This document shows positions 644 through 61,351 of a DNA stretch of 64,000 nt, piece by piece. The position numbers were made by a program, and so were the translations under genes. The first letter of the stretch is position 1, and each line of letters begins with the position of its first letter. The DNA is from a virus: IMG/VR virus record IMGVR_UViG_3300050343_000218. One strand, given 5' to 3'. The notes under the pieces are model-generated. The model was given only the letters and a program-made list of their open reading frames with translations, was not told the DNA's origin and ran no database searches.

Positions 644-887
644 GTTTGGAAATAAGTTCCTTTAAAAGAGATTTGATGTCGGAAACATCTTTCTTTAAAT
701 TATCAATTTCATCTGCATAACTAATATTTCTTTCGGCAAGCATTTTTGAACGCTTGTATGCCTCAAAGGAGCTTTTATCGTGATTGATAATCGCTCCCGA
801 TTCGTCACGATGGAGATCATCGTGACCCTTTACCTTATGGTAGTTGTAATTTTTAGCCCACATTTCAGCAAGTATTGTACTAGGCAT
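639..887 (-). CDS. Small conserved cyanophage protein (82 aa)
   Basis: KVKGHDDLHRDESGAIIN...C-terminal coiled coil. TAATG overlap with the upstream gene; an alternative start lies at 863. Confidence 0.75.
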   Translation of the reverse strand: MPSTILAEMWAKNYNYHKVKGHDDLHRDESGAIINHDKSSFEAYKRSKMLAERNISYADEIDNLKKDVSDIKSLLKELISKL

Positions 888-20000: not shown

Positions 20001-22949
20001 AACGAAAATAACATCTTCGTTGGTAAAGTTCTGAGAAGAACTATGTACTTCGATATTTGTAACAGGACCATAGTTGACACCACTGACTCTCGATGTCAGA
20101 AGCTCACCAGACTCCTCACTAGCGTTCACACGCCGTCTACGGACGTTATAAGGTAGATCACGTTGTCTGGCACTTAATTTCCAGTTCTCTTCGACAGGGA
20201 CGTTATAAAATGCCTCTCCGATTGAATATGGGAACGATGGACCCTCGTTCTCATCGGTAGTCATAAAATATGCATACACACCATCGGGAAATTCAGGTGT
20301 GGTGCAGAAACGACCGTTATTAGCGTCTAGATCTCCCAAACGTTCGATATACTCGTAATCGTTAACAAAACGACCCAAAGAATAAGTAGTTTCGCTAGGA
20401 GAGTCATTTCCCCGAGTTGTTTTTATTCTCCAGGAAGATTGGAGACGTTTGATAGTTGGACTAGCAGCTTGAACGTCTTGATATGGATTATCGTAACCAA
20501 ATGATCCATAAATCGGATTTCCGTCATATGCCCATCCCAAAATCGGAGAATGTGACTTGATTGTCAAAGGGTTGCCTTGACTATCGACGTTATCGACTCT
20601 CAGGATCTTCAGAGAGGTGGGTGCAATGATATGACTGTACGCATACCCATAATTGATGTCAGGACTCTCATAAACGATACCAGAGGTGTTTCCGTTGTCT
20701 ACAGTTTCCTCAAAGTACGTATTAAATTTCCATTGCGTCAGTTCTGCCTCTGCAGCTGCAATTTGGTGCTTAGGAGCAAGGGTAACAGTAGTTGTATCTT
20801 CTTGATAATCAAAACCGCCAGACAATTGTGTAAATCCAGTAATCTGACCAGTACTAGTATCAATTTGGCAAGTAAACAAAGCACCTTTGCCTTTACCGCT
20901 AGCATCGTAGATAAAAACGTTGGGAGGTTCAGTATAGTCTTGACCAGCATCAATAATCTGAGCTTGAGAGTTAATTGACAGACTAATAGTAGCAATCTGT
21001 CCTTGCTGGATCAAAACCGTGAATTGTCCGCCACTACCAGAGCTTAATTCAACTGTAGGAGGAGATGAATATCCAGATCCATTATTTGTGAGTACAATAT
21101 TGGTAACTTCGCCTAAACCATTCAATTCAGCATAAGCTTCGGCATTTCCTGCAATATTAACAGTAGGAGGAGTTGTATATCCTCTACCACTATCTGTAAG
21201 TACAATTTTATCTACAGCACCGAATTCGATACCGTTTGGAGACCTATGATTGAGTAGAGGGACACCATTGACAAGAACACCGACTTCTCTGTTGGTAGAA
21301 TACTGCTTAACAGATGCATCAATTGGTGTTCTGGGAATAATCTTAAGATGTTCTTGATCTTGAGGAACACTAGTGTTATCAAAAGGTCCAATTGAATAAG
21401 ATGGGAATCCAGATGATGCAATATAGTAATTTTTGGTATCTCTGTAAATTGCAGAGACATCAGAAAGCAATTTGTTCTTAATTTCGGTTGATCCAATATT
21501 GCTAGGATCAAATGCAGCTAATTTGCTAAAGTTTTCGTTAACAACCCATTCATTAGTAAGAGGAAGGTCGTCAAAGAATCCAGAAGACGAAAACTCGACC
21601 ATATTGTCGATAGCGATATATGGAATGCCACCATCTTCAACGTCAAAGGTATTTTGATCGCCTGTTTCGCCATAGATCAAGGAAGACGACTCTAATTCTA
21701 GTCCTTCGCTAGTGAGACCAGAAACAAGACCGTAAATCCTTAATTGAGTTTCTCTCGGAATCCCAAATTCGTCAGTATACCTACCAGTAAGATTATTCTT
21801 AGTAAAACAACGTACGCTTTTCTTATGGAAGTATGATCTCTTGCTTGCAACATCTTTTATAGCTGAATCTCGCTCAGCAATGATAAACTGAGTTGCAGTT
21901 TTGGTGCTATATGTAATTTCTTCTGTTCCGATAACAACTCGACCATCTCTTTCAGGAAAACCGATTGTAGAGAACACATCAATGCGATCTCCAACTCCAG
22001 CATTCTGAGAAAGAGCATTCATCAGGAATGTACGGCGAGCAATCGAGAATTTGCCCTCTTTACTTCCAGGAGAAATAGTCAGAGTGTATAATCTACTACC
22101 TTGATATGGTTCACCGACAATATTGTCGATGATTGCAAGAGCAGCTGTCAGTTCTGGGTTATATGGGTCGGGTACTTGTCTAATTTCATTACCAACAACC
22201 TCACGGATGTCACCAGAGATAACTTCGACTAGTAAAAGCTCTTTACTATTCCAACCAGACTCCGAACTCTTGAAAACATTCTCTTTCGGATAGAAAATGT
22301 CTGGTTTGACACTAAAAAGAATCTGGAAAATGAATTCCAAAGATTGTGGCGTACCTTTGACTTGATAAAAGTCCTTGATACGCTTAACGAGCAAGTTTTT
22401 GTTGCTCTGGTCTCTAAGATACTGATATGGGAAACCAGAAGTATATTGCTCTTCGTATTGTTTGATTAATCCTGCCAGCAGCAGGTTGCTTAGGTTGCTA
22501 ACTTCAGCAAATTGTTTATGGACATCTGTATTACTGTCAACAAAGCTGATATCATTGTATAAATCGCCAATTGTCGTTTTTGCACTATATCCTCTAATGC
22601 AATTTTGAAACTGGGTATCGTTTTTAGTCTCATACAGGAAAATTTCCTGATCGATCATTATCAGACCGTTCTTATCAGGAAATCCGTCAGTCTTATCAAC
22701 TGTAATATGAATGTTTGCTGAACCATCAGCAATTTCTTGCTCTAGGGAACAAGTTTTGACAAGAATTTCAGGAGAGAAGGTATCAACGTCAAGATACTTC
22801 TCAAAATTCTGAATAATACTAGTAGGTCCCTCTCCGATAGAGAGTGCTTCGTAGTATTTCGACAGAAAATTAGTTACGAGGGGGTAATCCTCGACAATGA
22901 AATCAGGAAGCTGATTTTCAATCAGTGCTGCGAGACTAGGACCTTGCAT
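11031..22949 (-). CDS. gp7: Baseplate wedge initiator gp7, giant cyanophage form (3972 aa) with a YHYH-type domain and internal repeats
   Basis: N-terminal QLPDFIVEDYP...KRIKDFYQVKGTPQSLEFIF, IQDGIYYQDYSYVVKS...HPAGFNLFGE, and position between gp6 and gp8. Confidence 0.88.
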   Translation of the reverse strand: MQGPSLAALIENQLPDFIVEDYPLVTNFLSKYYEALSIGEGPTSIIQNFEKYLDVDTFSPEILVKTCSLEQEIADGSANIHITVDKTDGFPDKNGLIMIDQEIFLYETKNDTQFQNCIRGYSAKTTIGDLYNDISFVDSNTDVHKQFAEVSNLSNLLLAGLIKQYEEQYTSGFPYQYLRDQSNKNLLVKRIKDFYQVKGTPQSLEFIFQILFSVKPDIFYPKENVFKSSESGWNSKELLLVEVISGDIREVVGNEIRQVPDPYNPELTAALAIIDNIVGEPYQGSRLYTLTISPGSKEGKFSIARRTFLMNALSQNAGVGDRIDVFSTIGFPERDGRVVIGTEEITYSTKTATQFIIAERDSAIKDVASKRSYFHKKSVRCFTKNNLTGRYTDEFGIPRETQLRIYGLVSGLTSEGLELESSSLIYGETGDQNTFDVEDGGIPYIAIDNMVEFSSSGFFDDLPLTNEWVVNENFSKLAAFDPSNIGSTEIKNKLLSDVSAIYRDTKNYYIASSGFPSYSIGPFDNTSVPQDQEHLKIIPRTPIDASVKQYSTNREVGVLVNGVPLLNHRSPNGIEFGAVDKIVLTDSGRGYTTPPTVNIAGNAEAYAELNGLGEVTNIVLTNNGSGYSSPPTVELSSGSGGQFTVLIQQGQIATISLSINSQAQIIDAGQDYTEPPNVFIYDASGKGKGALFTCQIDTSTGQITGFTQLSGGFDYQEDTTTVTLAPKHQIAAAEAELTQWKFNTYFEETVDNGNTSGIVYESPDINYGYAYSHIIAPTSLKILRVDNVDSQGNPLTIKSHSPILGWAYDGNPIYGSFGYDNPYQDVQAASPTIKRLQSSWRIKTTRGNDSPSETTYSLGRFVNDYEYIERLGDLDANNGRFCTTPEFPDGVYAYFMTTDENEGPSFPYSIGEAFYNVPVEENWKLSARQRDLPYNVRRRRVNASEESGELLTSRVSGVNYGPVTNIEVHSSSQNFTNEDVIFVDNAANDSGDGLFAAVNEIQGQEVEQLSCNNPKNNYLITNNILFLNHETVITQNNTGASAKVIGQIEENDRFVVKDVTGTFNLTDTISSTTEIYNLTFDNTIIADIGSEVVLQVQSAGVAHEVAVGKVLRNVFDKNTVIVELQLANPDENTTLDEDGVTTITIPRSSYTNIGYFAIGNGVNIGAVSATIVNIRSLSKDFKLLDIEDNIAVLKTKDKFHGLAVGDDVIVTVEPNSSIATQRYDVETKKYHTIQLNNIERSTAINYSGLSRISIIGAGTSFAPSQTYTGVTAEFFGEGRLGVTHGSLNITTDANGRVATAVIADGGAGYQYGDVVSVAVGTLGGNVQSQKPSFFVDAAGFGYNETELIVDNSNGISTGDIIQITEERLEVVSVTGNIITVIRGAQNTEIVDHLDDIAVELVTKTYRFTKDSVVNFGSSNAYVDNYDPSTQQLDVYYVNEGDQIIADNSIFVDESTPTKQAQIDSVTDTSLRFRFRKDGESEWFKNISLDIQRTYRYIFDTSSPTLVGRHLKFYENVYRTRNLLQAFESIEKPGFSGSYTSFQLGYGIPIDGTNWEQKPVIAVPPKIYYDEPLSKINSEDQFFTLVEDPFAGKHAVFYGFEYEFAYRLPKAPQQEGFTNVQYFTDSLYAIGSIKNVKVISGGKNFTLPPQLPGVFLNKRFRGAFTPLIEDGKITSVNIIDTGLNYSQPKVLLENTGGGANAQFRVELTNQGAVGRIVPTEEGSGYGPDTTVRLYESDAKLYAHGENIGRLATLEIISSGKNFNNDPSLLPQVNPPIVMTLRNFPDRAFLNGEQITQRDANGKMIAFGRVDYWINGMNILRIKQVQGKFDQRYPLYGEALRSTADIQKIYVAKIDPVIGPTSTSIGNFQTDRSKLSAVSQKIQDGIYYQDYSYVVKSTISINDWRDFVKKFTHPAGFNLFGEVLIESFGDAEQPATIDTPQSGTKDNGFGAVISIIEPGVLGVTTSHKATRITQSHVRVDTFRQQRGLGTLNYSERNNVEIEVFDLAVSPEFDGEVQVDGSVTGTRTFTLFKKDINEPLVPYKAQQLLVTLDGVLQDPDTAYTVSGSTITFAEAPLGPFVDAKTGINVPGVNFYGKSIKFQDNINNDRYMLEANNITSQFDGTSTNFDLGIEIVNDDHVFISLDGVLQEPGVAYNLVEGGAGEVTFTEPPRQVGKILELDITDATNFLVNDFVVGQTSGARGEIVAKRYFVDHRFLNAADLLADNSTILAEEAVGILDDTSKFDGFTYPGLGRNQCITDLKSVLKNISRDLQLGGNSNTWDAAKEYLLNPADPNSDLKHIEGEVEATLWAMKYFKDMSILTIRNHFGIGNLTSQQRFADTTFSMTPTNALYTASSGVLVLTLPGHELSSSDKVAIATDSLVFTCDKDSNQTQHSYPRSTDPAAGVILSIVSISGDDVTINVGASPAGEQYSHSFVSSSANSIGKYNDVYNKTNAVADEFIDSANLLNANRNFIAEEAVAMMLAGGGTISDPAFNTAVSIVSATATTITVDVGKSDSIDAHTFDSALANSVITGGNYTHTLQEVAANSIQVTSGPALTPTDATYDPATGEFVMTVVGHTLTTSSTVTIADDAFIFRCSMDQNATPHSYPRSTDPASGQQLAVTSVTTDTFTVNVGVSAEVTFTPTNGTYDPLTGMMMLDIGTHTLAQGTSIRLLTNGISFTCDLDNYTVAKAYPRASSPGSSDDCCDDVKDMLKAIAWNLQYGGNNKVWDAAELYVDRDGYLNHITQKVPETLQVFANVKTLAADVIRNNVITPAGTHGVTQVFDNSITVETNECASVESAIGVLVDLVGNAIQTPSTFEANVARTLPLVWPTEFSTLTPTRDLTITIDAANPYCQQVESAVNVLFNIVTTTISEAAFNNTNHLLNVAQDFPNPNRIQVEMTKKDFLQGEDIQSEASLLTATTQSVSSINPGIQQKFFGFKQGKYYKLDSIESQFNDAQTIFDLERSGVPFYSERSQNLVVILNGVMQVNRVAYRVEDNLVVFNEAPAFGSACFILYFYGLDPERVLIGYNIEPPGTFKKFFKLTLDQQILLPLEGAQCWVSTEPVTNIVREYPYSFARGRIYKQAWTPGQQNVLFVEGVTAQKSNWLNGTLSVTRDRGSTAPIIELQILDVEEQVNEDFREKLFNRQDRIKSNLSQGDLIKIDGEAETRGIVRAARDALVTSGYDSDTSGIVSSFFRSYEYEVVLNVGPYSGQIEGFGAQAIAKIDAEVRFHTLQSSRTEGVEFLPGDEVVQYQDQNDTSSPVIWRAVVKAYAPKDKAIEFRSEYIDGTTPVVYTDPDVNTFRTGERIYVEATPSTNAIALQYLEPGGVNRVVLTRRDNSAYYESFREWKQANVWNKGENLLGNGFVPMNASANNEPGEYDFTSSIYDDQLNPQISKNYREPPVMIFRSSPVTDSNGDSLGSPTGGGARATAIVVRGEIVDTELISSGSGYKVPPQILFTRGYFVFRKDPLSVANFTTFGIEPPTIDSPVGVQSFLQTIFKGGDRTRWTLFNSYAPAGDNLVFGNAGAPIYQVKKYYDGRVIIQKILDLTNKMHPQPEIYINLAPEDVRCYWKETTVLQSQMTGGVQGISCALTKYKKTETKVQYNAGVIEKRAFNNPNLIGFDTYNTGSLGLTIGSLESMKFEIQPQSNNSIGQNGYYTDSAGRQINYVMGDMNLDFWSNLYPNLTIGDFENPDILNSQVYAEGDQNYFRYQQGSEIHFRTTSKAMILDNTFGDDVLLVNSTKGFPASGGKLIIADVAADKREEMTYTSSTSDRFLGVQRLNPLSTVEEGSRFAAMTNTKLTQYVSLSNGGTGLSYNGGFISDVQYYLFYGGNVGSNRIIHWTFSTANEIQSFQNHNTITVEYIRGTGSNGGEYPGQDLELWFWSANTNYVKAGNVWSSGDAAGGDWSTTTLNIPATIQTEINNGNAYRMYFQQLSIQAGGADYFGLRTWWLDDTDGEPTYPKGTVVMSANKL

Positions 22950-49656: not shown

Positions 49657-52600
49657 TTATGCGCAAGTGGGGTTACAATCGCCTAGGTAAGAGAACAGAA
49701 CTGGCCACGGAGCAGGGATCTGGAAGTCCAATGCTCTAGGTGCAATTCCATCAGTTACCTTAATTTGTGCAACACCTTCCATACCGATGATCGGTTGTTC
49801 ACCGTGACCACGGTCGCGGAGGGGTTTAATGAAGTTACAGAAGTAATCATTAGATGGTGTAATGCAAGCACCGTTAGAGGTGTATGCAAAATCATAAGTG
49901 TGGTCCTGGCAAGGATCAGCAACTGCCACAAGGTTAATCAAGTCAACCAAATCGAATGGAGACTCAACCAGCTCCACCCACAATGTGTAGACCTTTTGAG
50001 TACCACGTGCAGGGAAGATAGCAGGTTGAATGTCATTCTTAACAGAGAAGTCAACAGGAAGGTTGACGTTAGTGTCACCACGGAAAGGACACTCGCGAAG
50101 TACTCCAGTTGCCGCGGCCAATTGACCACTATAAGTAGAGAAGTCGCCAGTATTAACAATCGTAGGAGCGTTAGCGTGGGCAGGATTATTTGTAGTGTAA
50201 ACAGTTCTAGTACCACTATCAACGTTTTCCATATAAGGGAACTCATTGATCAGACGCAATCTCCAGGTAAACTGACCAGCATCGATTGTGTAAGAGACCG
50301 TCACATCTTGTGACTGGTTGTTACTCACAGTCAGATTCTGTGCACCTTTGTAGTAATCTTGTACTTGCAAGGTGTTGATGTCAATGTAAGGCAGTGCACT
50401 CAAAGGTGCAGGACCCACGTCAATAACGAAAGAGCGAACTAAGACGTTACCAAAGTAATCGCCACAAGTCAGAGTAGTATCAACGAAGCCTTGATCGTGA
50501 CGCAGATAACCATTAGAAACGGTACCAGTCCAACCATTAGCATACTCATACCACCACATACCCATTTCAGGTGGGTTAGCAATAGCACTGATTTCGTTCG
50601 ACACAGAAGATAATGCATCGCCATTACCAACCACAACTTGATAAGCATACGGGTCATTTACACCACTTGGGATGCCCTTACAAGGAAGGTCAGTAACACG
50701 AAGCACAGTACCATCGTTTGCCAACGGAGGCTGTAGTTGTGAAGAAGATTGAACAGGAATTTCAATCTGAGGACCACCATAGTTCACACGAAGTGGGAAG
50801 TCTTCATCGAATGAAACGTAGTTCGCTTCGTAGATGCTAGCACCATCGAGAACACAAGAAGAATGATATGCAGTAGTATTGTTACCGTAATCTCTCCTGG
50901 ATCTATAATGTGGTGACTTGAGAGGAACATAAGTAGAACTGGTGTTAGCAACAGTGTCCCAGTTATAGGACTTAACGCCAGTAGAGGTATCATAACTATA
51001 AAGCTTTCTGTACCAGTTGAACTCGATGTTCTGGTCAGTACAAACAAGATTCACTGGGTAACGACCATCCTTAGGGGATTTGTTACTAGACTGATACGGT
51101 AACGTGTTAGGGAAGTGTGTTAAAGCACCATACTCAGTCACAACAGAGTAAGAACTCGAAGTGATTGATGTAGCGCCAGATTCCATTGTCAGCAGAGGTT
51201 GTGCAGGAACTGCAGGGATATTAGTAAGACCAAGCTGTAACGTATTGGAAAGCAATGCATTGAATACGCTGGTGAAATCAAGGTGCTGTGTAGCAAATGT
51301 AGTACCACCTGCCTGACCGAAGTAGAAGACAGAACCAGCTTGAGCTTCATCAACGATAAGATCGACCCAAGCACCTGGTGTGCCAGGAGTACCGTAACGT
51401 CTAACGTTAGTGCCAATGTATGCACTACCAGTAGCAGATTCTCTCAGTTCTAGGTTCTTACCAACCCAGGAAGCATCGCTAATATCAAAGCGATACGTAG
51501 CACCTTTGGGTACTTCAAACACAGTAGAACCAGACTCGTTAATGACAGTAGCATAGTCATTACCAGTAGCAACTAGATTGAATGTCAAGCGATAACGCAT
51601 CTTGAGGCGGAAGAAATCTTGATCATAATTCCACCATTTGTTAACAATGAGGAAAGAGATTGCAATTTCGTGTCCTGTGACATCTTCAAAAGTCTCATTG
51701 TAAGAGTAGAATTGATCTCTCGCTGCCAAATTATTCTCGAACCAATCGCCTTCTTCAATCTGACAAGATTGACCAGCAGCAACAGGACCAGTAGAATACT
51801 CGTTAATGTTATGCCATATGAAACCTGCACCTTTATCTCCCCAAATTTGCCACTGAGGAAGATAATCAAATTGAGTATTTTCGTAACCAGTTTGATATGC
51901 AAGAACACTGAATGACTTATAGCTCAGAGGACGTGAATACCACTTATTCTCTTCCCAGATAAGATCATCATTAGGTTGTCCGTCTTTCTTAGTGACAGTC
52001 AAGTAATCAATTGTTCTCGAAGCACCACCAGTCTTCAGCGCAACATTCTGTACTGTAACAGTAGTGTTAGTAAGCTGAATAGTATACTCTTGAGTCTGAC
52101 CAGAAATATTTTCTTCTACAGTCAGTGTCAAGTCAAGGGTTGTGTTGTTGATCAACGTACCACTCAAGACACCAGTTTCGGTATCGAATGCAAGACCAGT
52201 ACCAACAATAGAATCACCAGTCAGTGAATAATCTCTATCGAGAATTGTCTCTGCAGCATATGTTCTTAAGAAAGAAACACCAAGCTGAAGGTTGATAACA
52301 TCACCGATGTTAAATGTACCCAAAGCACCTGCAGGTGTGTACCACGTGGTCAACAGGTTGATATAAGGAGAGAACAGACCGCGAACATAACCGCCATCAA
52401 CACCCTTATCTGTAGGAAGGTAAACGATCTCATCACCTTCACCATTTCCAGCATCTTCTTGAGCTTCAGTCTGGAAATATAGTTTGTTGCCAACAGGATT
52501 TTCATCCATCCAGCGTTGGATACCATCAGCACGTTGATGAGTACCGTTCAAATTAGCAATCTTGATCAGATTGCCACCAGTTTCAGACTGAACACCAGTA

Positions 52601-55600
52601 AACTGAGCAGCATCAGGTTCAATTGTAATTCTGCTGTTAGCAGTATCAACATCAGTAATGGTTTGCCAGTATCTCTGAAGCACGTTGAATTGCACACCAC
52701 CAATGTCATAGACATAGGAGGATCCTTCTACAGCATTACCACCAGGATAGACAGGATCTGAGTAGAAGTAGTCACCCATTATGTAAGGATATGCAGGAGC
52801 TCCATTCTGATCTTCAGTGATGAAGTAAGCATAGGTTCCATTCGGATAGTCAGGTGTCACACAGTAGCGACCATTTCTGCTATCAACGTCACCGATGATA
52901 ATACGCTCACCCATATTAGAGTGATTGTAGCAGAAGTAGTACAACACGTGGGGAGCATTTGATGCAGGAGTATACTCAATGCTTCTCAAAGTAGCAGTGT
53001 CAAATCCTGCGACATATTCAGAATATGTTACTACAACATCTTCCAACTTGTACACAACACCGATTGTATAAACAGCGTTAACATCACCAGGAGACGATCC
53101 TGCAACGTGCCAACCTTGTGCTTGAGCATCACCATTAGTTGATAGCAGCATCATATGGCTGGTATTTGAACTATCAGAAAGGTTAAAGGTATACTTTCTA
53201 CCTTTCTTAAAGTTAAATGATGGTTTCTCAGCAGAACCACTTAATGTTCCACCAGAGATATAATAGCGACCACCACTACCACTAACAGTAGCAGCTGCAG
53301 CTTGAACATTGTAAGTAATGTCAGTAATATTATCTTCTTCGCTACCGCCTTGGAATTCAAAGTCTTCGTTAAAAGATCCAATAGGATAGGTTGTTTTGTC
53401 TGGACGTGATCCAAACATATCAGGAACTCTATTCTCTAGTTTCGGCAGATATGCAGGCTTCATACGAATAACCGCACTGCTATTGTCATCACGATCAGAA
53501 TAACCGTAAGGACCATAGATTGGATAACCGTCAAATGTCATACCAAGAATCTTGGAGTGACCGTTAGTATGACGCTTGTAATCACCCTGAACATTGCTGT
53601 TCACGACAGATTGATTACCCATACGTGGATGATTCACACAGACATAATACAGCAATGCAGGAGAGTTTTGAGGAACAACGATTGTAACCGTACGAGTAGT
53701 AGCACTATTGAAGCTATTGCTGAAAGTAACAGCATCAACTGCAGCACCATCCAATCTGTAAGTAACACCATCGCTATAACGAACACCACCATTATGAATA
53801 CCATCATCAGTGGTGGAGAAGTACATCGGGTGATTATCATTAGAAGAATCACTTAGATCAAAGATGTAAGTGTTACCTCTAGTGAAGTCCAGTTGTGGAG
53901 CTTCAACGTTAACGGTGTACGTATCACCACGGAGTACATAGTTATTAAGACTACCTTGATTGTAGTAAGGAGCTGATGCTGACTTAGTATCAGTGGTAAT
54001 AATATAGTTAACAGTACGATATCCTAGATCGTAGTAAGATTGAGACAGATAGTTAGAACCAGAAACAGCAACGGTGCCGTATGCACTCAACAGTTTGCTT
54101 GAGTTATAACCATAAACGTTAGCAGCACTTGGATAACCACCATAAGAGTCTTCACCCACGAGGTTACCATTAGTAACTGTATTGTATGTCCAACCAGGAG
54201 TAGGACCATTCTCGAAGGAATAGTGGTACAGGAATGTACCAGTAGTAGTAATACCGAAAGCATTTACACTGCGTAAAGGCTTCATCTCTACCAAGCTGGC
54301 AGATGCATAGTTAGTACCACCTCTCCAGTTAAAGTTCTGGTTAAAGGATTGCTTATCAATACTATTTGGGTTACCTGCAGTAATAGCAATCTGTGCAACA
54401 GATGTTGCTTGCACACCACCACTAACGTTTGGAGGATTAATAGTAACAGTAGGAGAAGTTGTGTATCCAGAACCCTGTTCAATCAAGTTAAGACCAGAAA
54501 CATAACCATCTAGCACTGAGATATTAGGAGATGCTACTGTACCAACACCGCCGCCACCACTAAATGTGATGTTAGCGTAAGTATAACCAACACCTTGATC
54601 AGTTACATTAATAGTATCAACTACACCAATTTGTGTACCAATCGTACACACAGAAGATGCAGGTTGCTCAAAGATTGGGTTTTGCGGTGCAGTGTCAGCT
54701 TCAGTGACTGGTTCGCCGTAGTACCTATCTCCTAGAATATATGGGAATGCAGGATTAGCAGAAGCATCGAATGTAGTGAAGTATGCATATGTGCCGCCAG
54801 GGAATTCAGGAGTGACACAGTAGCGACCATTGCAACGATCTAAGTTGCCACCACCAAGGTACTGATAGTCTTCCACAAATGAACCCATCGGATATGCCGT
54901 AGTAGACGGAGCATAACCAACTGGTTCAGTCAGAGTAATCGTACCTGTCATTGCCTGATGATTTTCGCAGACGTAATAATAAGTTCCAGGGGCTGTAGTT
55001 GTAGTACTCCACAACAACGTAGCATTGTAGCTACCATTGTTAACAACACCAGCAACAACTTGTGCAGGGTTATAAGGTGCAGGAACTTTCTGAATCCAGA
55101 AAGGATGAGTAATTGTAGTTCCACCGCCACCACCAGCAGACTGGATAGTGATAGTACCGACCATACCGCCGTGATACTCACACTGATAATAGTAAGTACC
55201 AGCAGAACCAATACCTGGAGTCCAAGCGACAGTACCAGACTGAGTACCTTGATTACTAACACCAGAGATTTGATTGCCAGTACCAGTACCAGCTGCAGTT
55301 TTTAGATAGAATGGGTGACCAGATGCAGACACCGTGAAGTTAATAGTATCACCTTCATAGAATGTCAGACTAGGATCAGATCCACTAACGTTGCCAGTTC
55401 TATCAGAACCAGAGACAGTGTAATCGCTAAAACCACTTGCAGTAACAACTAAGTTATAAGTTGCAGGTGTACTACCACCGCCACCACCAGTAGTATAAGA
55501 AGCATTGACGTTGAACACAAGGTTGTCGCCAATGTTAGCAGCGATTGCAATATCACTACCAATTGCTTCTCCAGTAAAATCAAAGTCTAAGCTATCATCA

Positions 55601-58600
55601 GCAGTAACACCCCAGGTGTACGTAGATCCACTATATTGTGTCCCATCACGCTCTCCCTTAACACCCCAAGAACTTTGCATTCTTGAAAGTGTGGTGGGTG
55701 AACCAGGACTTGAATAACCAATAGGACCGTAGATTGGATAACCATCGTATGCATAACCAATCACAGGAGAGTGATGAGTTGCATTAATAATATCTGCAGT
55801 TGTATGCGAAGGAAGAGCTGCAGTGTTTGTAGTTGTAGTCACAGATGCAGCATTGCCGTATCCAGAATACAATGAGCAGTAGTAGTAGAGATTAGGGGTG
55901 TCAGGTTGAACTTGAAGATATAAACCTGTACCAGATACACCGTCACCAGGTGTACCTTGATAACGATATCCAATCTCGTATGCAACACCGCCTTGAGTAT
56001 GCACACCATCCTGAGTTTCAGAGATTCTGAAAGGATAACCAGCGTTACTTACATCACTCTGATCAAAGTAATAAGTATTACCTTCAGTGAGAATGATATT
56101 AGGTGTCAGACCATTGTTAAGGTAGTACTTGTTACCACCACCAGGATCATTAATGGTTACAGTATAGGTTGTAGAAGAACCTTTCCAAGTATTAACTAAG
56201 AAATTACCTGTAATGTAGTGATACATACCAGAACCATCTACAACACCGCTACCATTATCAGCGCCAAATGCAGTAGAGTTGAAAATTTTGTTGAAGGTAT
56301 ATCCATCAGGACAACCAGTACCATCAGGCAAATCAACATTCAAACCGTGCGAAAGATGACGCAGTTGTACACCATTCAGCGCCATACCAATAGAAGGTTG
56401 AGCTAAAGTAGATGTAGGAGATTCATCGGAAATATTTCTACCACCACGATAAACCCAGGTATGGTTGTAAGACTGACCTGTAATAGTATTGGAGTTATTG
56501 CTATTTGGGAAAGCTCCATACAATGCAGGTTGAGGCAGGTTATCTGCAATAACCGTCAGCAATCTTGTAGTCTGATTCAGTGACGAAGAGGTAGTAGAAC
56601 CACCGCCAGACACGAAAGAACTATCAGGAGCGTGGATAGTGTTACCTTGATTAGCTGCAGCAGAGATTGCAATGCCAACAGTAGGTGCCTCAGAATATCC
56701 TGATCCAGGATTAGAAATATTAACCGCACTAACGATACCATCAGTAATGACAGCTACAGCAGTAGCACCAGATCCACCACCACCAGTAAATGTAACTGCA
56801 GGAAGGTTTAGAGGATTATAACCAGAACCACCATTAGTAACCGTAACAGAATCAATACCACCACCAGTTAGAGAGATAACAGCTGTTGCAGTTGCGCCAG
56901 TACCATCACCAGCGATATCAACAGTAGGAGCTTCGGTATATCCAGCACCACTTTGATCAACGTTGATGCTTGTAATATTACCACCAGTCAGTGTGATGTC
57001 TGCGGTTGCAGTTGCACCAGTACCGCCACCACCAGTAAATGCAACAGATGGGACAATAGTATAACCAGAACCTTGATTCTGGATAGACAAGGTAGAAACA
57101 TAACCAGTAGTACCACCAGAAGGGAATACACCAGCAAGACCAGGAGCAGGATCGTTATCAGTGACAAGATTCAACAATCCGCCAGCTTGATAATATGCTG
57201 CTGTCGGTGATCCATCACTACTAACCCAAACGTCAGTGATGATATCCACTGAAGGAACTGCCTCAGGGATACGGAACTGCATCTTATCACCAACAGTAGC
57301 ATCGAATCTAGAGAATTCACTACCCAATGTGATAGACATTTCATTGGTGCCAGCACCAACAGCAATGTAAGTATTGATGCCATCGAGAGTAATCTCATCG
57401 ATGTCATTAGTAGGATAAACGTTTACACTACCACCACCATATTCTTCACCAACAGCGGATTGCGTTCTCTCGTAATCCCAATCAATTTCTCTACGAATCC
57501 ACTCTTTAGCAAGTTTAGGAACAGATTTGCCTTCATATGTTGCTCTGTTCTCATATCCTTTCTTGCCCAAATACTGCGCGATAACGCCAGCAGTCAGAGG
57601 ACCAGAGAATGAAGTACCACGAATATAAGCATAATAAATGGAACCAACAGAGCTGTAAGAACTGTTGGTGTTCCAATAATACTGAGGGCAGTAAATTGAT
57701 TCTCCAGGACCACTGGTGGTAACACCAGTACCATAGTTTGAGAATCCTGAGAATGTATTATTATATGCCGTAGCACCGACAGAAATCTTGTCGCTAATAC
57801 CCTCCATATTATATCTGTAGTCCTGAGGACCAGCAGTACGAGGACCAGGATTAAACTTAGCTTGGAATCCACCGTACTTAAAGTTATAACCGTAACCGTT
57901 ACCAGCAGAGCGAACGAATACGATTCCGTTTTCTACACAAAGATTTTCATAGTCGTCCATAGCAGTGTCTGCTTCATATGAACCACTATCGAATCCAGGT
58001 TCGTTCTGAGGAACGTAACGATAGACTTCAGACGGAATAGTACCAACACCCAGAGAAGCATTGATAATAGCTGGTCTAGTACTTCCTTTATAGTTAGGAT
58101 GAGCAGGATCGTTATGGTTGATGATTGCTAGTAGAGCAAACACATATGTGGACAATAGACCACTACCAGCGCTGTTCTGACATTTCAGTGCATAGAATCT
58201 AGTCTTACGTGCAACACCGTGCTCCAGACCACCAATTAGAATGGCACATTGACTACCGTGACCATTGTCATCTTCGTTAGAGTTTGCCTCACCATTTACA
58301 GTGTATCCTGAATTGTATCCAGGAACTTCATAGACACGATATTCAGCCTGATTAATAGCAGTATTGTAGTCATCAGCATAATCAGGGTGGAATAGTTCAG
58401 GGTGCAAGTTAGCACCAGTAACGTTAGTAGGACGTGATGCACCACGAATACCAGTATCAATAACATAACAGTCAACACCCTCACCGTGCTCGGTGTAAGA
58501 GTACAGACCATAATTCAGTGAATTTTGTTGCTGAGTGATACGTGCAAGATACCACTTACTAAAGATTGCGACTTTACAATGATCGGTAGCATTTAAGAAT

Positions 58601-59346
58601 CCACCGCCACGCAAACCAACTCTTGAGGTTTCGTTAGCATAAAGATAAAGCTGCTGCGGAGTTGTCTGCGAAACAGTTAGTGTTACTTCAGCACCAGTGG
58701 TACCAGGAGTAGCAGTTCTGGAGACACCAACCACATAGTTAGTACCGCCATTATGAGTACCATCAGGAGTCTCAGAGAAAGCTAAAGTATAACCAAAGTT
58801 AGAGTTATCAGAAACATCAATAACTAATTCGTGTCCAGGAAAAACATATGTCAGGTCAGGAGCTTGTGATCCGTTGATGTATAACTTAGGACCACTAGTA
58901 GTATTAACAACAGTAGCAGCGATTGAATACTGAGTACCAGAACCAACGTTATAAGGAATAACGTTGCCGTAATCGCTAGGTTTAATTTGACGTGCTAGCG
59001 CATCAATGTCTTCGTTGTCAGTTGATAAAGACTCTGCAATTGCTCTTCTATCAAAAGAACCACCTTGCACATCAACTTCTTCTAATCCATATGTCTGTGA
59101 ATCATCAGTTTCTACCCCCGTTAGGTAAATTTCTCTATCCCAAACAGCTCCAATAACCTCAGGGAATTCATCTCCCTTTAATATTTGTACAAAGTTATCG
59201 TCTTTTACGTCGAAATCTAAGAATAAAGTCTTAAGACGACTCAGATCTTCGGTGTTCTGAAGTGATGTAAAACGCTGTTTCGCTCTTTCGATGACAGCGC
59301 TGGCTTGATTTTCCTTAGAAATTCTCGCAATAATTCTATTGCTCAT
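49657..59346 (-). CDS. Giant multidomain virion protein: S8 subtilisin-like protease + YHYH domains + cupredoxin-like modules (3229 aa)
   Basis: S8 motifs VIDTG / GHGSQCA / SAGN / GTSFSGP. YHYH-family motifs SPVIGYAYDGYPIYGP and NGRYCVTPEFP. Four CxxHxxM motifs. Preceded by a late promoter. Confidence 0.88.
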   Translation of the reverse strand: MSNRIIARISKENQASAVIERAKQRFTSLQNTEDLSRLKTLFLDFDVKDDNFVQILKGDEFPEVIGAVWDREIYLTGVETDDSQTYGLEEVDVQGGSFDRRAIAESLSTDNEDIDALARQIKPSDYGNVIPYNVGSGTQYSIAATVVNTTSGPKLYINGSQAPDLTYVFPGHELVIDVSDNSNFGYTLAFSETPDGTHNGGTNYVVGVSRTATPGTTGAEVTLTVSQTTPQQLYLYANETSRVGLRGGGFLNATDHCKVAIFSKWYLARITQQQNSLNYGLYSYTEHGEGVDCYVIDTGIRGASRPTNVTGANLHPELFHPDYADDYNTAINQAEYRVYEVPGYNSGYTVNGEANSNEDDNGHGSQCAILIGGLEHGVARKTRFYALKCQNSAGSGLLSTYVFALLAIINHNDPAHPNYKGSTRPAIINASLGVGTIPSEVYRYVPQNEPGFDSGSYEADTAMDDYENLCVENGIVFVRSAGNGYGYNFKYGGFQAKFNPGPRTAGPQDYRYNMEGISDKISVGATAYNNTFSGFSNYGTGVTTSGPGESIYCPQYYWNTNSSYSSVGSIYYAYIRGTSFSGPLTAGVIAQYLGKKGYENRATYEGKSVPKLAKEWIRREIDWDYERTQSAVGEEYGGGSVNVYPTNDIDEITLDGINTYIAVGAGTNEMSITLGSEFSRFDATVGDKMQFRIPEAVPSVDIITDVWVSSDGSPTAAYYQAGGLLNLVTDNDPAPGLAGVFPSGGTTGYVSTLSIQNQGSGYTIVPSVAFTGGGGTGATATADITLTGGNITSINVDQSGAGYTEAPTVDIAGDGTGATATAVISLTGGGIDSVTVTNGGSGYNPLNLPAVTFTGGGGSGATAVAVITDGIVSAVNISNPGSGYSEAPTVGIAISAAANQGNTIHAPDSSFVSGGGSTTSSSLNQTTRLLTVIADNLPQPALYGAFPNSNNSNTITGQSYNHTWVYRGGRNISDESPTSTLAQPSIGMALNGVQLRHLSHGLNVDLPDGTGCPDGYTFNKIFNSTAFGADNGSGVVDGSGMYHYITGNFLVNTWKGSSTTYTVTINDPGGGNKYYLNNGLTPNIILTEGNTYYFDQSDVSNAGYPFRISETQDGVHTQGGVAYEIGYRYQGTPGDGVSGTGLYLQVQPDTPNLYYYCSLYSGYGNAASVTTTTNTAALPSHTTADIINATHHSPVIGYAYDGYPIYGPIGYSSPGSPTTLSRMQSSWGVKGERDGTQYSGSTYTWGVTADDSLDFDFTGEAIGSDIAIAANIGDNLVFNVNASYTTGGGGGSTPATYNLVVTASGFSDYTVSGSDRTGNVSGSDPSLTFYEGDTINFTVSASGHPFYLKTAAGTGTGNQISGVSNQGTQSGTVAWTPGIGSAGTYYYQCEYHGGMVGTITIQSAGGGGGTTITHPFWIQKVPAPYNPAQVVAGVVNNGSYNATLLWSTTTTAPGTYYYVCENHQAMTGTITLTEPVGYAPSTTAYPMGSFVEDYQYLGGGNLDRCNGRYCVTPEFPGGTYAYFTTFDASANPAFPYILGDRYYGEPVTEADTAPQNPIFEQPASSVCTIGTQIGVVDTINVTDQGVGYTYANITFSGGGGVGTVASPNISVLDGYVSGLNLIEQGSGYTTSPTVTINPPNVSGGVQATSVAQIAITAGNPNSIDKQSFNQNFNWRGGTNYASASLVEMKPLRSVNAFGITTTGTFLYHYSFENGPTPGWTYNTVTNGNLVGEDSYGGYPSAANVYGYNSSKLLSAYGTVAVSGSNYLSQSYYDLGYRTVNYIITTDTKSASAPYYNQGSLNNYVLRGDTYTVNVEAPQLDFTRGNTYIFDLSDSSNDNHPMYFSTTDDGIHNGGVRYSDGVTYRLDGAAVDAVTFSNSFNSATTRTVTIVVPQNSPALLYYVCVNHPRMGNQSVVNSNVQGDYKRHTNGHSKILGMTFDGYPIYGPYGYSDRDDNSSAVIRMKPAYLPKLENRVPDMFGSRPDKTTYPIGSFNEDFEFQGGSEEDNITDITYNVQAAAATVSGSGGRYYISGGTLSGSAEKPSFNFKKGRKYTFNLSDSSNTSHMMLLSTNGDAQAQGWHVAGSSPGDVNAVYTIGVVYKLEDVVVTYSEYVAGFDTATLRSIEYTPASNAPHVLYYFCYNHSNMGERIIIGDVDSRNGRYCVTPDYPNGTYAYFITEDQNGAPAYPYIMGDYFYSDPVYPGGNAVEGSSYVYDIGGVQFNVLQRYWQTITDVDTANSRITIEPDAAQFTGVQSETGGNLIKIANLNGTHQRADGIQRWMDENPVGNKLYFQTEAQEDAGNGEGDEIVYLPTDKGVDGGYVRGLFSPYINLLTTWYTPAGALGTFNIGDVINLQLGVSFLRTYAAETILDRDYSLTGDSIVGTGLAFDTETGVLSGTLINNTTLDLTLTVEENISGQTQEYTIQLTNTTVTVQNVALKTGGASRTIDYLTVTKKDGQPNDDLIWEENKWYSRPLSYKSFSVLAYQTGYENTQFDYLPQWQIWGDKGAGFIWHNINEYSTGPVAAGQSCQIEEGDWFENNLAARDQFYSYNETFEDVTGHEIAISFLIVNKWWNYDQDFFRLKMRYRLTFNLVATGNDYATVINESGSTVFEVPKGATYRFDISDASWVGKNLELRESATGSAYIGTNVRRYGTPGTPGAWVDLIVDEAQAGSVFYFGQAGGTTFATQHLDFTSVFNALLSNTLQLGLTNIPAVPAQPLLTMESGATSITSSSYSVVTEYGALTHFPNTLPYQSSNKSPKDGRYPVNLVCTDQNIEFNWYRKLYSYDTSTGVKSYNWDTVANTSSTYVPLKSPHYRSRRDYGNNTTAYHSSCVLDGASIYEANYVSFDEDFPLRVNYGGPQIEIPVQSSSQLQPPLANDGTVLRVTDLPCKGIPSGVNDPYAYQVVVGNGDALSSVSNEISAIANPPEMGMWWYEYANGWTGTVSNGYLRHDQGFVDTTLTCGDYFGNVLVRSFVIDVGPAPLSALPYIDINTLQVQDYYKGAQNLTVSNNQSQDVTVSYTIDAGQFTWRLRLINEFPYMENVDSGTRTVYTTNNPAHANAPTIVNTGDFSTYSGQLAAATGVLRECPFRGDTNVNLPVDFSVKNDIQPAIFPARGTQKVYTLWVELVESPFDLVDLINLVAVADPCQDHTYDFAYTSNGACITPSNDYFCNFIKPLRDRGHGEQPIIGMEGVAQIKVTDGIAPRALDFQIPAPWPVLFSYLGDCNPTCA

Positions 59347-59380: not shown

Positions 59381-59388
59381 TATTTATG
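59381..59388 (-). promoter_or_regulatory. Late promoter CATAAATA
   Basis: Plus strand tatttatg, 35 nt upstream of the 3229-aa gene start. Confidence 0.7.
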
Positions 59389-60049
59389 ATCTCAGATCGC
59401 CTTTAGTTCGTAGTAAATGCATTTTCTGTTCGTCTATGATTCTAACCATTTCCCATTCAGGAGAATCTGGACTGTATTCTGTATTAGTAATACATTCTTG
59501 CATTCTTGCAAATGCCAGACGATCCATAGGATCTTTGAGTCTAGACTGAGCCCAAAGCACTGCTACTTTCCTTTCACCAGCAGTTACAGGTTTAACTCTA
59601 TGTGGTATTCCAGTAGGGTAACTAAATGCCCACCCTGCTGGTAACTTAACACTAATCAGTTCAGTGCCAAGTTTAATCTCCAATTCCCCACCTTCATAGT
59701 CTTCATTTAAAAAAACTGTGGTACTAACATCAGATCGTAAATCTTGATTAGAACCCATATGTGCGTGATCGGTATGCCAATCATAATGGCATCCTACACC
59801 ATACTTACAAAAATGTGGTAACGTATAAGCACAGCTCAGCATTGAGTCGCGTACAACATCACAATTATCCATAGAACCTTCCAATATACTCCAGCACGCA
59901 TATGCAGACTGTTTGTCTATTTGGAAATTATTCTTTACTCGTTTATCGCTACTGCCAGATTCTTTACCATCCTCCCAGGTACCAGCATCACAAAGATTTA
60001 ATATATGCCCGACTTGGACGGAATTCAAAAGTTCATAACGATAAAACAT
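59384..60049 (-). CDS. PKHD-type (PiuC/YbiX-like) 2OG-Fe(II) hydroxylase
   Basis: YDWHTD...STTVFLNEDYEGGELEI...YPTGIPHRVKPVTAGERKVAVLWAQS. Confidence 0.9.
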   Translation of the reverse strand: MFYRYELLNSVQVGHILNLCDAGTWEDGKESGSSDKRVKNNFQIDKQSAYACWSILEGSMDNCDVVRDSMLSCAYTLPHFCKYGVGCHYDWHTDHAHMGSNQDLRSDVSTTVFLNEDYEGGELEIKLGTELISVKLPAGWAFSYPTGIPHRVKPVTAGERKVAVLWAQSRLKDPMDRLAFARMQECITNTEYSPDSPEWEMVRIIDEQKMHLLRTKGDLRS

Positions 60050-60051
60050 AA

Positions 60052-60702
60052 TTAAGAGGGTTTAGTAGGCCAACCAGTAAAGTTTTCAGGATCGTAGGGA
60101 TCATCTGTTTGAGCAGCAGGAAGATCTCTAAGTAATGTACGATATGCTGCCCATTCAGCTTTTTTCTCATCAGTAAGAGGAGAATCAGCCATCTGGGTCC
60201 AATCACAATCAAGTAGACGAGTGTGTCTCGCGTGCTTCAATGTTTTCATATTCTCAGGAACACCTTCGGTAAGGTATCTGTGAGCATCAAATTGTTCTTC
60301 TACAACTGCCGCCTCAGCTGCAATATGCTCTGCCGTAAGTTCTTCTAGTCTAGTCCTAAGAGCATTGTAAATCTTATCTGCTTCTGCCGTACTAGGACCA
60401 CCATTCAGAGGCGTTTTATTATAGTTACTAGGAATCTCTCCAGAACACTCTGTGTTCTCTGTGATATAAAAAGATGGTGAGATAATTCCGTCCCCATCAT
60501 CTGAAGATAACCAATAGTACATCATCTCAAATTGATCAACACCAGGAACATCCCAAATGCCAACCAAAAGAGGTGCCACTAATGTATTATATTCTTCGCC
60601 AATATCAAAGAAGAGAGTAGTTCCAAAAGGAGCGTGGTACGTACCAATCACCTTCTGAATATTGTTAATAACTAATGCTGCTTTTCCAAAATCTCTTGCC
60701 AT
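60052..60702 (-). CDS. Protein with a C-terminal phage tail (fibre) assembly chaperone domain
   Basis: RLLDCDWTQMADSPL...KAEWAAYRTLLRDLP...WPTKP is the typical tail assembly chaperone signature. Confidence 0.85.
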   Translation of the reverse strand: MARDFGKAALVINNIQKVIGTYHAPFGTTLFFDIGEEYNTLVAPLLVGIWDVPGVDQFEMMYYWLSSDDGDGIISPSFYITENTECSGEIPSNYNKTPLNGGPSTAEADKIYNALRTRLEELTAEHIAAEAAVVEEQFDAHRYLTEGVPENMKTLKHARHTRLLDCDWTQMADSPLTDEKKAEWAAYRTLLRDLPAAQTDDPYDPENFTGWPTKPS

Positions 60703-60703
60703 T

Positions 60704-61351
60704 TTATGCGTTGTGATAGTACCAACCAGTCAAGATATATTTATTGCCTTTTAATACTGTATTTCCTCTGTGGGGATGCGTAAAACCAGCTGGCCAAACT
60801 ACAACAGTTCCTGCAGGAGGTTTAACCCGACGTTTTTGCATCAAAAACTCAGTCTCACCAGCTTCATAATCATCATTCAAATATATCGCCCACACTAAAC
60901 ACCGAGAAGAATGGTTAAGACCCATAGCCTCATAATGCCAGACGTGATATCCACCACCTTCCTCTGTTTTTTGCAACTTGATGCAACTACTAATCAGTGA
61001 TTCGCCTGCAAGCTGTGGAAACTCACCAATGTAATGTTCAACAGTTGATGCCAAATATTGATTAGTGCATTGCTGCAACTCAAGATTTTGATGAGTAATC
61101 AGGGTTTGTTTATCATATCTACCCTGCTTCCCTTGAGGAAACTGAAATCTACCGTCAGCAATATCACCGTTATCCATTGAGGATCCGATAACACTAGCGT
61201 GAGATTCTAGATCATCAAACCAATCAATATATTTCTGACACTCGGATTTGGGCATAAAACTATCCCAAACACCAATAAAATCATCAAAGTTTGATTTAGT
61301 CAAGTTCTCATCGAGCATCAGCTCTAGAGGACGAATAGGTGTAATGTCCAT
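60704..61351 (-). CDS. 2OG-Fe(II) oxygenase
   Basis: GGGYHVWHYE...YLNDDYEAGETEF...WPAGFTHPHRGN...KYILTGW. Paralogue of 35856-36545. Confidence 0.9.
   Translation of the reverse strand: MDITPIRPLELMLDENLTKSNFDDFIGVWDSFMPKSECQKYIDWFDDLESHASVIGSSMDNGDIADGRFQFPQGKQGRYDKQTLITHQNLELQQCTNQYLASTVEHYIGEFPQLAGESLISSCIKLQKTEEGGGYHVWHYEAMGLNHSSRCLVWAIYLNDDYEAGETEFLMQKRRVKPPAGTVVVWPAGFTHPHRGNTVLKGNKYILTGWYYHNA

Follow-up and report, generated by a model that had tools for sequence, protein, structure and literature searches.

We describe here seven homologous modules of the cupredoxin fold in one giant viral protein, four of which (B, C, D and E) carry, by sequence, the complete ligand set of a type-1 (blue) copper site. 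The protein is encoded in a 64,000-nucleotide stretch of viral DNA (IMG/VR record IMGVR_UViG_3300050343_000218), which we refer to as the window. Its gene, P0001 (49657..59346, minus strand), is a single open reading frame (ORF) by translation, encodes 3229 amino acids (aa) and lies within a block of tail-fibre genes. Each of the four intact sites probably binds a metal, with copper the expected one, on an appendage of the virus; we give this interpretation a probability of about 65%. From the N terminus to the C terminus of the protein, the modules and the two YHYH domains are as follows:

58582..58929, minus strand: module N, N-terminal, ligand-less (aa 140-255)
54652..56484, minus strand: YHYH copy 1 (aa ~955-1565), interrupted by A and by C with its inserted B; delimited from the Pfam PF14240 stretches and alignment
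55837..56184, minus strand: module A, ligand-less paralogue (GYPF...CSLYSGY; aa 1055-1170), inserted in YHYH copy 1
55477..55614, minus strand: module C, N-terminal half (aa 1245-1290), ending where B inserts
55141..55476, minus strand: module B (aa 1291-1402), complete ligands His1344, Cys1389, His1392 and Met1395; inserted inside module C
54937..55140, minus strand: module C, C-terminal half (aa 1403-1470), with His1414, Cys1460, His1463 and Met1466
52702..54249, minus strand: YHYH copy 2 (aa ~1700-2215), interrupted by D and E; delimited in the same way as copy 1
53599..54015, minus strand: module D (aa 1778-1916), with His1839, Cys1903, His1906 and Met1909; inserted in YHYH copy 2
52897..53322, minus strand: module E (aa 2009-2150), with His2064, Cys2139, His2142 and Met2145; inserted in YHYH copy 2
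51211..51549, minus strand: module T, C-terminal, ligand-less (aa 2600-2712)

Ligand sets, fold and nesting of the modules

A regular-expression scan of the giant ORF found the motif C-x2-H-x2-M exactly four times, once in each of the ligand-bearing modules:

55162-55182, minus strand: CEYHGGM, loop of module B (aa 1389-1395); upstream His1344 in GHPF, 45 residues before the Cys
54949-54969, minus strand: CENHQAM, loop of module C (aa 1460-1466); upstream His1414 in THPF, 46 residues before the Cys
53620-53640, minus strand: CVNHPRM, loop of module D (aa 1903-1909); upstream His1839 in NHPM, 64 residues before the Cys
52912-52932, minus strand: CYNHSNM, loop of module E (aa 2139-2145); upstream His2064 in SHMM, 75 residues before the Cys

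A preliminary description of this DNA had singled out these loops as amicyanin-like. All four are present, each with its upstream His, and the protein contains no others; the ranges given for them begin at the His codon and are accurate within one codon. Chance occurrence of the motifs was rejected by 20000 shuffles of the giant protein, which yielded 0.003 C-x2-H-x2-M per shuffled protein, with at least one motif in 59 of the 20000. The modules are repeats of common ancestry, so that the four motifs cannot be counted as independent events; ligand conservation is a better test than shuffling.

We compared the modules with one another by profile-profile alignment (hhalign), using per-module alignments built from 18 orthologues. 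The seven modules are homologous and fall into two subfamilies, {N, A, D, E, T} and {B, C}, which are bridged by the C-D comparison at a probability of 91%. Within the larger subfamily, hhalign probabilities were 99.9% for D-E, 99.3% for A-D, 96.8% for A-E, 99.0% for N-A, 98.1% for N-D and 97.1% for N-T. Modules N, A and T are without the ligand set present in B, C, D and E. The preliminary description had also pointed to copies that lack the ligands, GYPF...CSLYSGY and others near both ends of the protein, and the N-A, N-D, N-T, A-D and A-E comparisons (97-99%) place these copies with the D/E-type modules.

The modules are also nested. When the inserted module B is removed from module C, the remainder aligns with B over 94 columns at an hhalign probability of 99.5%, with GDNLVFNVNAS in C corresponding to GDTINFTVSAS in B. 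Linkers GGGGGS and GGGGG flank module B, one or two residues before the ligand His of C. Because C is complete only with B cut out, and because B lies between Gly linkers, we conclude that B is a domain inside a domain. All five central modules (A-E) are located in loops of the two YHYH domains, and the modules are presumably displayed on these loops. YHYH loops seem to be insertion hot spots, since P0312, a 600-aa YHYH protein sourced from NCBI and probably bacterial, has a Gly-rich repeat of the type seen in the giant protein inserted in its YHYH domain. In the giant protein these repeats of ~40 aa (…GSGYT..P.V.F.GGGG.GA.A.A…) occupy window positions ~56650-57130 and ~54370-54580 on the minus strand (aa ~740-900 and ~1590-1660).

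Several lines of evidence assign the modules to the cupredoxins. Pfam matched only two families in the whole giant protein, YHYH (PF14240, 139.5 bits) and Copper-bind (PF00127, 23.3 bits; cut-off 21.2 bits); PF25489 was not matched at E<=1. Scanned alone, aa 1240-1570 scored 29.5 bits for Copper-bind, above 21.2, with the best stretch at aa 1447-1472 in module C. In phmmer and hmmsearch comparisons with the PDB, the only matches at expectation values (E) up to 0.01 were plastocyanin, amicyanin, pseudoazurin and copper nitrite reductase; module B matched plastocyanin at E 9e-4. The Cys, His and Met of the phage loop stand in register with the plastocyanin and amicyanin ligands in the HMMER alignments, and the loop of module C aligns residue for residue with Cys92-x2-His95-x2-Met98 of amicyanin. 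The upstream His lies opposite the plastocyanin ligand His in the 1b3i alignment only, and is about three residues off in the 7zqe alignments. Aligned on its own with amicyanin, the C-terminal half of C placed a Tyr opposite His53; we regard this pairing as an artefact of removing the N-terminal strand, because the full-module alignment with 1b3i plastocyanin pairs His with His.

Structure prediction gave the same assignment. AlphaFold2 models were confident for module B (predicted local distance difference test, pLDDT, 93-98, from a 56-row alignment) and module D (pLDDT about 90, from the 18 orthologues), and the top Foldseek matches were cupredoxins. By VIA-align, module B matched with Z 10.0-10.7 and a root-mean-square deviation (rmsd) of 2.2-3.3 Å over 96-103 residues, with 28% identity to rusticyanin, and module D matched laccase cupredoxin domains with Z 8-8.7; among the 50 matches listed for each model, there were cupredoxin-fold domains only. 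For modules C (pLDDT 63-86) and E (pLDDT 66-91), the fold is assigned from profile homology (B-C 99.5%, D-E 99.9%) together with moderate pLDDT, and the assignment of A, D, E, N and T follows from profile-profile homology and fold. Together, these results bear out the preliminary description on two counts: the modules have the cupredoxin fold, and B, C, D and E carry the amicyanin-type ligand set, a Cys-x2-His-x2-Met loop with an upstream His.

Ligand conservation, distribution and genomic context

We examined ligand conservation in 18 full-length orthologues, whose identity to the query is 70-85% over B/C and 60-80% over D/E. All four ligands of module B, and likewise of module E, are present in 18/18. 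Module C keeps its ligands in 13/18, and the other 5 have lost two together, with Cys replaced by Ser and His by Ala. In module D, the axial position is Met in 12, Gln in 3 and Glu in 1, and the Cys-His pair is lost in 2, one of which (P0007) is also without the upstream His. The ligand positions of module A are Tyr or Phe in 16 orthologues and Asn or Arg in 2, with the Cys mostly kept: that of CSLYSGY (window 55858-55878, minus strand; aa 1157-1163) is retained in 16/18, although both His and the Met are replaced by Tyr.

Beyond the orthologues, the B-type family comprises 212 distinct instances, of which 205 have C-x2-H-x2-M and 1 has Leu at the Met position; a His lies 38-55 residues upstream in 204. 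The residues between the ligands vary freely among orthologues, and the four between-ligand loop positions in the B-type family have 2-3 bits of entropy. D/E-type modules, typically one or two per protein, occur in 115 other cyanophage YHYH proteins, where the axial residue is Met in 75, Gln in 4 and Tyr in 2, and 101 modules are ligand-less. These data demonstrate that the ligands are conserved in homologues while their neighbours are free, and that they are under purifying selection. The preliminary description had suggested selective retention of the ligands in four modules; this is firm for B and E and looser for C and D. Joint loss of ligands and replacement of Met by Gln, as in stellacyanin, is the pattern that would be expected of real type-1 sites.

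The module is widespread. An exhaustive HMMER search with modules B and C returned 2587 cluster representatives at E<=1e-3 and 922 at 1e-10. Carriers of the B-type module are fibre and baseplate proteins of cyanophages and bacterial surface proteins; modules 65-70% identical occur in proteins with DUF285 repeats, immunoglobulin (Ig)-like domains, NHL propellers or a type IX secretion sorting domain, and the contig of one carrier also has an adjoining SusC-like TonB receptor. According to Foldseek, many cultured phages of Synechococcus and Prochlorococcus have the module in structural proteins, among them fibre and baseplate proteins. Its BFVD matches, at an rmsd of 1-2 Å, include the 'proximal tail fiber' of P-SSM2, an S74-domain protein of P-SSM5, the long tail fibre of S-SCSM1, the gp9 connectors of S-H34 and S-RIM14, and S8-domain proteins of ACG-2014e and ACG-2014h. 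In ACG-2014d, a CRYHGLM module is nested in the single YHYH domain of protein gp074, whose gene lies between those of gp9 and gp8, and a CTAHGAM module stands at the end of gp9. The Atlas clusters closest to module B are mostly viral and unnamed, and a protein of an identical cluster is labelled 'plastocyanin' in IMG.

In the literature searched, we found no account of phage structural proteins with cupredoxin domains or copper sites; cyanophage genome papers mention soluble PetE as the sole such protein (PMC3037559). Databases offer automatic labels only, such as 'plastocyanin' or 'YHYH domain-containing protein'. What is new at this locus is the module-in-module nesting, the double YHYH scaffold, and the orthologue pattern of retention, joint loss and Met-to-Gln exchange. 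The nesting of B in C, and the module as a common building block of cyanophage and bacterial surface proteins, were both absent from the preliminary description.

In the particle of this marine cyanobacterial virus, the giant protein is probably an appendage of the tail or baseplate. From the N-terminal end onwards it consists of an S8-protease-like region, the Gly-rich repeats, the two YHYH domains with their nested cupredoxin modules and a long C-terminal part. Its PHROG matches are to families of baseplate wedge subunits, virion structural proteins, tail-fibre connectors and proteases. Its adjoining genes encode fibre proteins, a fibre chaperone and two 2-oxoglutarate (2OG)-Fe(II) oxygenases. 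We infer its presence in the virion from these family labels and from the neighbouring fibre genes. Directly upstream of the giant ORF, at 59384-61351 on the minus strand, a tail-fibre assembly or chaperone gene lies between the two 2OG-Fe(II) oxygenase genes. The S8 (subtilisin-like) protease region spans 57457-58557 on the minus strand (aa ~264-630), matches PHROG 3677 'protease' and has visible VIDTG, GHGSQCA and GTSFSGP motifs; shorter cyanophage relatives (1824-1970 aa) join Pfam Peptidase_S8 to two CxxHxxM modules. The window contains two more giant ORFs, at 887-9136 and 11031-22949 on the minus strand (2749 and 3972 aa), neither of which has a cupredoxin module or CxxHxxM motif; the same negative result was obtained for the other ORFs of the 64-kb window. 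Megablast searches of a phage collection with the region of interest and with window positions 1-25000 gave no matches.

Roles of the sites and alternative explanations

Each intact site is predicted to hold a single metal ion. The metal is likely to be copper, since copper sites, unlike zinc sites, typically have an invariant thioether Met for which Gln is the recurrent substitute; the virus particle would then probably carry bound copper. We propose that the metal would clamp the C-terminal ligand loop onto the beta-sandwich, and that exposed appendage modules, located on or close to the host-facing surface, would in this way gain rigidity and a long life in seawater. Among the roles considered, such a structural clamp is the most likely one, at somewhat less than an even chance; a redox role is a minority prospect, receptor contact a smaller one, and no function or another metal takes the remainder. 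The clamp is favoured because ligand-less paralogues coexist in the same protein, because the C and D sites have been lost repeatedly with the module kept while the B and E sites are always kept, and because the same module decorates non-enzymatic surface proteins.

A number of points weigh against copper-binding sites of this kind. Single module B scores 15.3 bits to Copper-bind, below the 21.2-bit cut-off, and Pfam scans of single modules A, D, E, N and T gave no cupredoxin match at E<=1. The residue that follows the first His is Pro, where Asn is usual. A retained Cys is no proof of a metal site, as the otherwise ligand-less module A illustrates. The 'baseplate' labels come in part from the very YHYH and cupredoxin modules that these proteins share. 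Free copper is scarce in the cytoplasm, the compartment of virion assembly, and cupredoxins produced there often acquire zinc; the sites could contain zinc, stay empty, or take up their metal only once the cell has lysed. Finally, a type-1 site is a specialised electron-transfer site, and a purely structural role would be unusual chemistry for it.

The first alternative is that the sites are not copper sites in practice: they would hold zinc, another metal or nothing, and their ligands would be kept for loop packing or folding. Cytoplasmic assembly, with its scarcity of copper, agrees with this, as do the survival of folded ligand-less paralogues alongside the intact modules of the giant protein, the absence of ligands from ~55% of the D/E-type modules of related phage proteins, and the dispensability of sites C and D in some orthologues. 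We nevertheless consider it unlikely. The four ligands are almost never changed over ~200 diverse instances in which adjacent loop positions are free, and Cys and His are lost jointly, not singly. In addition, Met is invariant with Gln as the sole recurrent substitute, a requirement that neither zinc nor pure packing would impose.

A more far-reaching proposal, which we rate as similarly unlikely, is that marine cyanomyovirus particles carry several redox-active blue-copper centres on the baseplate or fibre apparatus that are active in infection. Such centres might sense or swap electrons with the host surface, or feed a remodelled YHYH metal site that attacks the envelope oxidatively. Light-dependent adsorption has been reported for some cyanophages, and electron exchange at the host surface could be linked to it.

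A further alternative is a redox relay, in which the type-1 sites would pass electrons to or from a catalytic centre, either the YHYH domain that hosts them or another oxidase-like centre, for oxidative attack on the envelope or for sensing the redox or light state of the host during adsorption. Type-1 ligand sets are specialised for electron transfer, and an axial ligand that is mostly Met, then Gln and rarely Leu is a natural set for tuning the potential. The same nesting of modules in YHYH domains also occurs twice. The PF14240 match (cut-off 25 bits) falls in five stretches, which correspond to two interrupted domains, and we aligned both copies to 10 canonical YHYH proteins, whose common motifs are AH, G.YHYH and HSP..DGYPIYG. 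The name-giving His pair is missing in both copies, with YHYI in copy 1 (orthologue consensus YYYT) and YKRH in copy 2; the 'AH' His is missing as well, and copy 1 retains the HSP His only. The predicted YHYH metal site may be remodelled or dead. Copy 2 has the motif RHxxGHSK (R-H-x2-G-H-S-K; window 53545-53571, minus strand; aa 1926-1934), as do 115/116 motif sites of other cyanophage YHYH proteins. In the cyanophage YHYH subfamily (P0375-P0494), the name-giving pair is replaced by Y[FY]Y[TN], and RHxxGHSK stands just before DGYPIYG. In the AlphaFold2 model of aa 1690-2215, the YHYH parts have a pLDDT of 20-30.

Three observations keep a coupling to YHYH alive at low odds. The ligand loop of module D lies ~17 residues before the phage-type RHxxGHSK of copy 2. 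In published predictions (PMC7824862; bioRxiv 10.64898/2026.10.18.759936), YHYH is a metalloenzyme, a hydrolase that depends on metal, is associated with tails and has a His triad; the residues predicted to bind the metal are this triad plus an Asp (PMC7824862). Precomputed Pfam annotation shows that P0353, a metagenomic protein of 1742 aa that is probably bacterial, combines multicopper-oxidase domains (PF07731, PF07732) with YHYH and fn3, a fusion that hints at a possible link of YHYH to copper or oxidative chemistry. Against these stand the missing His residues of both copies, the 92 other, shorter YHYH proteins (probably mostly bacterial) in which there is no cupredoxin module, and the orthologues without D ligands that still have RHxxGHSK, with no joint loss. 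There is also no His-Cys-His bridge of the nitrite reductase or laccase type, no electron donor is known outside the cell, no candidate electron-transfer partner came to light in the window or the protein, and the same module occurs on leucine-rich repeat (LRR), Ig and NHL surface proteins without a catalytic partner. These data weaken the earlier suggestion of electron transfer to a YHYH metal centre, and we regard the relay as unlikely; two other roles raised in the preliminary description, oxidative attack on the envelope and metal mimicry, are neither favoured nor disfavoured by them.

Still less probable is that the modules are adhesins for a host-surface molecule, with the metal site or the surrounding patch in the binding surface. 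The module is at the extreme C-terminus of fibre-like or surface proteins in 101/224 instances, some of which may be contig truncations; in cultured cyanophages, its carriers include proximal and long tail fibres as well as gp9 connectors; and fusions link it to adhesin-type LRR, Ig and NHL domains, one of them in a protein on a Bacteroidota-like contig. In the giant protein, however, the modules occupy internal positions in YHYH loops, a long way from the C-terminal tip, and an identity of 65-70% between the B-type modules of cyanophage proteins and those of proteins on apparently bacterial contigs is too high for a host-specific receptor-binding surface. Two further candidates were rejected: a recent petE copy, as the loop length differs and the match is weak and domain-level only, and a CuA or multicopper-oxidase site, as both a second Cys and a His-Cys-His motif are missing.

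The classic blue copper domain is a soluble electron carrier, and intact, selected ligand sets as building blocks of phage tail or baseplate proteins are unexpected. If the sites hold copper, the virion would have a metal requirement, which could affect its stability or infectivity in copper-poor or copper-toxic waters, and a new adsorption mechanism would be possible. Were the virion centres redox-active, a phage adsorption machine would for the first time contain an electron-transfer cofactor, and the surface ocean would hold a pool of virus-bound copper. The nesting itself shows how giant phage appendage proteins are built, with domains in domains in the loops of scaffold domains.

Comparison with known systems

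One of the closest known systems is amicyanin of Paracoccus and Methylobacterium (PDB 1aac, 2qdv), which shares the minimal Cys-x2-His-x2-Met loop; in the HMMER register, phage GTYYYVCENHQAM stands against amicyanin GTYDYHCTPHPFM. Amicyanin is also, like the phage modules, a single cupredoxin domain of ~105 residues with an upstream His. The sequence similarity is weak, with E 0.0007-0.0025 using the family profile and 0.013 or weaker for single-sequence queries, and the residue after the first His is Pro in the phage modules but Asn in amicyanin. Moreover, amicyanin is a soluble periplasmic carrier whose partner is methylamine dehydrogenase, whereas the phage modules are internal parts of a 3229-aa protein.

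The best sequence match in the PDB is plastocyanin (7zqe_M, 2plt, 1b3i; E 1.8e-4 to 9e-4). Its Cys, second His and Met align with the phage loop, with His37 paired with the upstream His in 1b3i only. This match is weak and domain-level, at ~20 bits, and the plastocyanin loop is Cys-x2-His-x4-Met, unlike the Cys-x2-His-x2-Met of the phage. Cyanophage PetE is a small auxiliary metabolic protein that works inside the host (PMC3037559), whereas the phage modules are domains of a probable structural protein.

By structure, module B is best matched by rusticyanin (2cal, 1rcy), the extra N-terminal domain of Hyphomicrobium nitrite reductase (2dv6_A) and two-domain small laccases. Their loops are longer than that of the phage modules, with Cys-x4-His-x4-Met in rusticyanin. 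The nitrite reductase offers a precedent for the fusion of an additional type-1 domain to an enzyme. Flanking His residues wire its type-1 Cys, and that of laccase, to a catalytic copper centre; the phage modules have no such motif.

Also close in architecture are other cyanophage YHYH proteins with a nested D/E-type module, such as ACG-2014d gp074 ('baseplate wedge subunit', YP_009133417.1) and those of S-RIM2, S-RIM8 and ACG-2014b. Proteins of the gp074 type share the phage-type RHxxGHSK...DGYPIYG motif with the giant protein. They measure 1150-1700 aa and contain a single YHYH domain, in most cases together with one module that bears ligands and one that does not. The giant protein differs from them in its two YHYH domains, its seven modules, the nesting of one module within another and its N-terminal S8-protease-like region.

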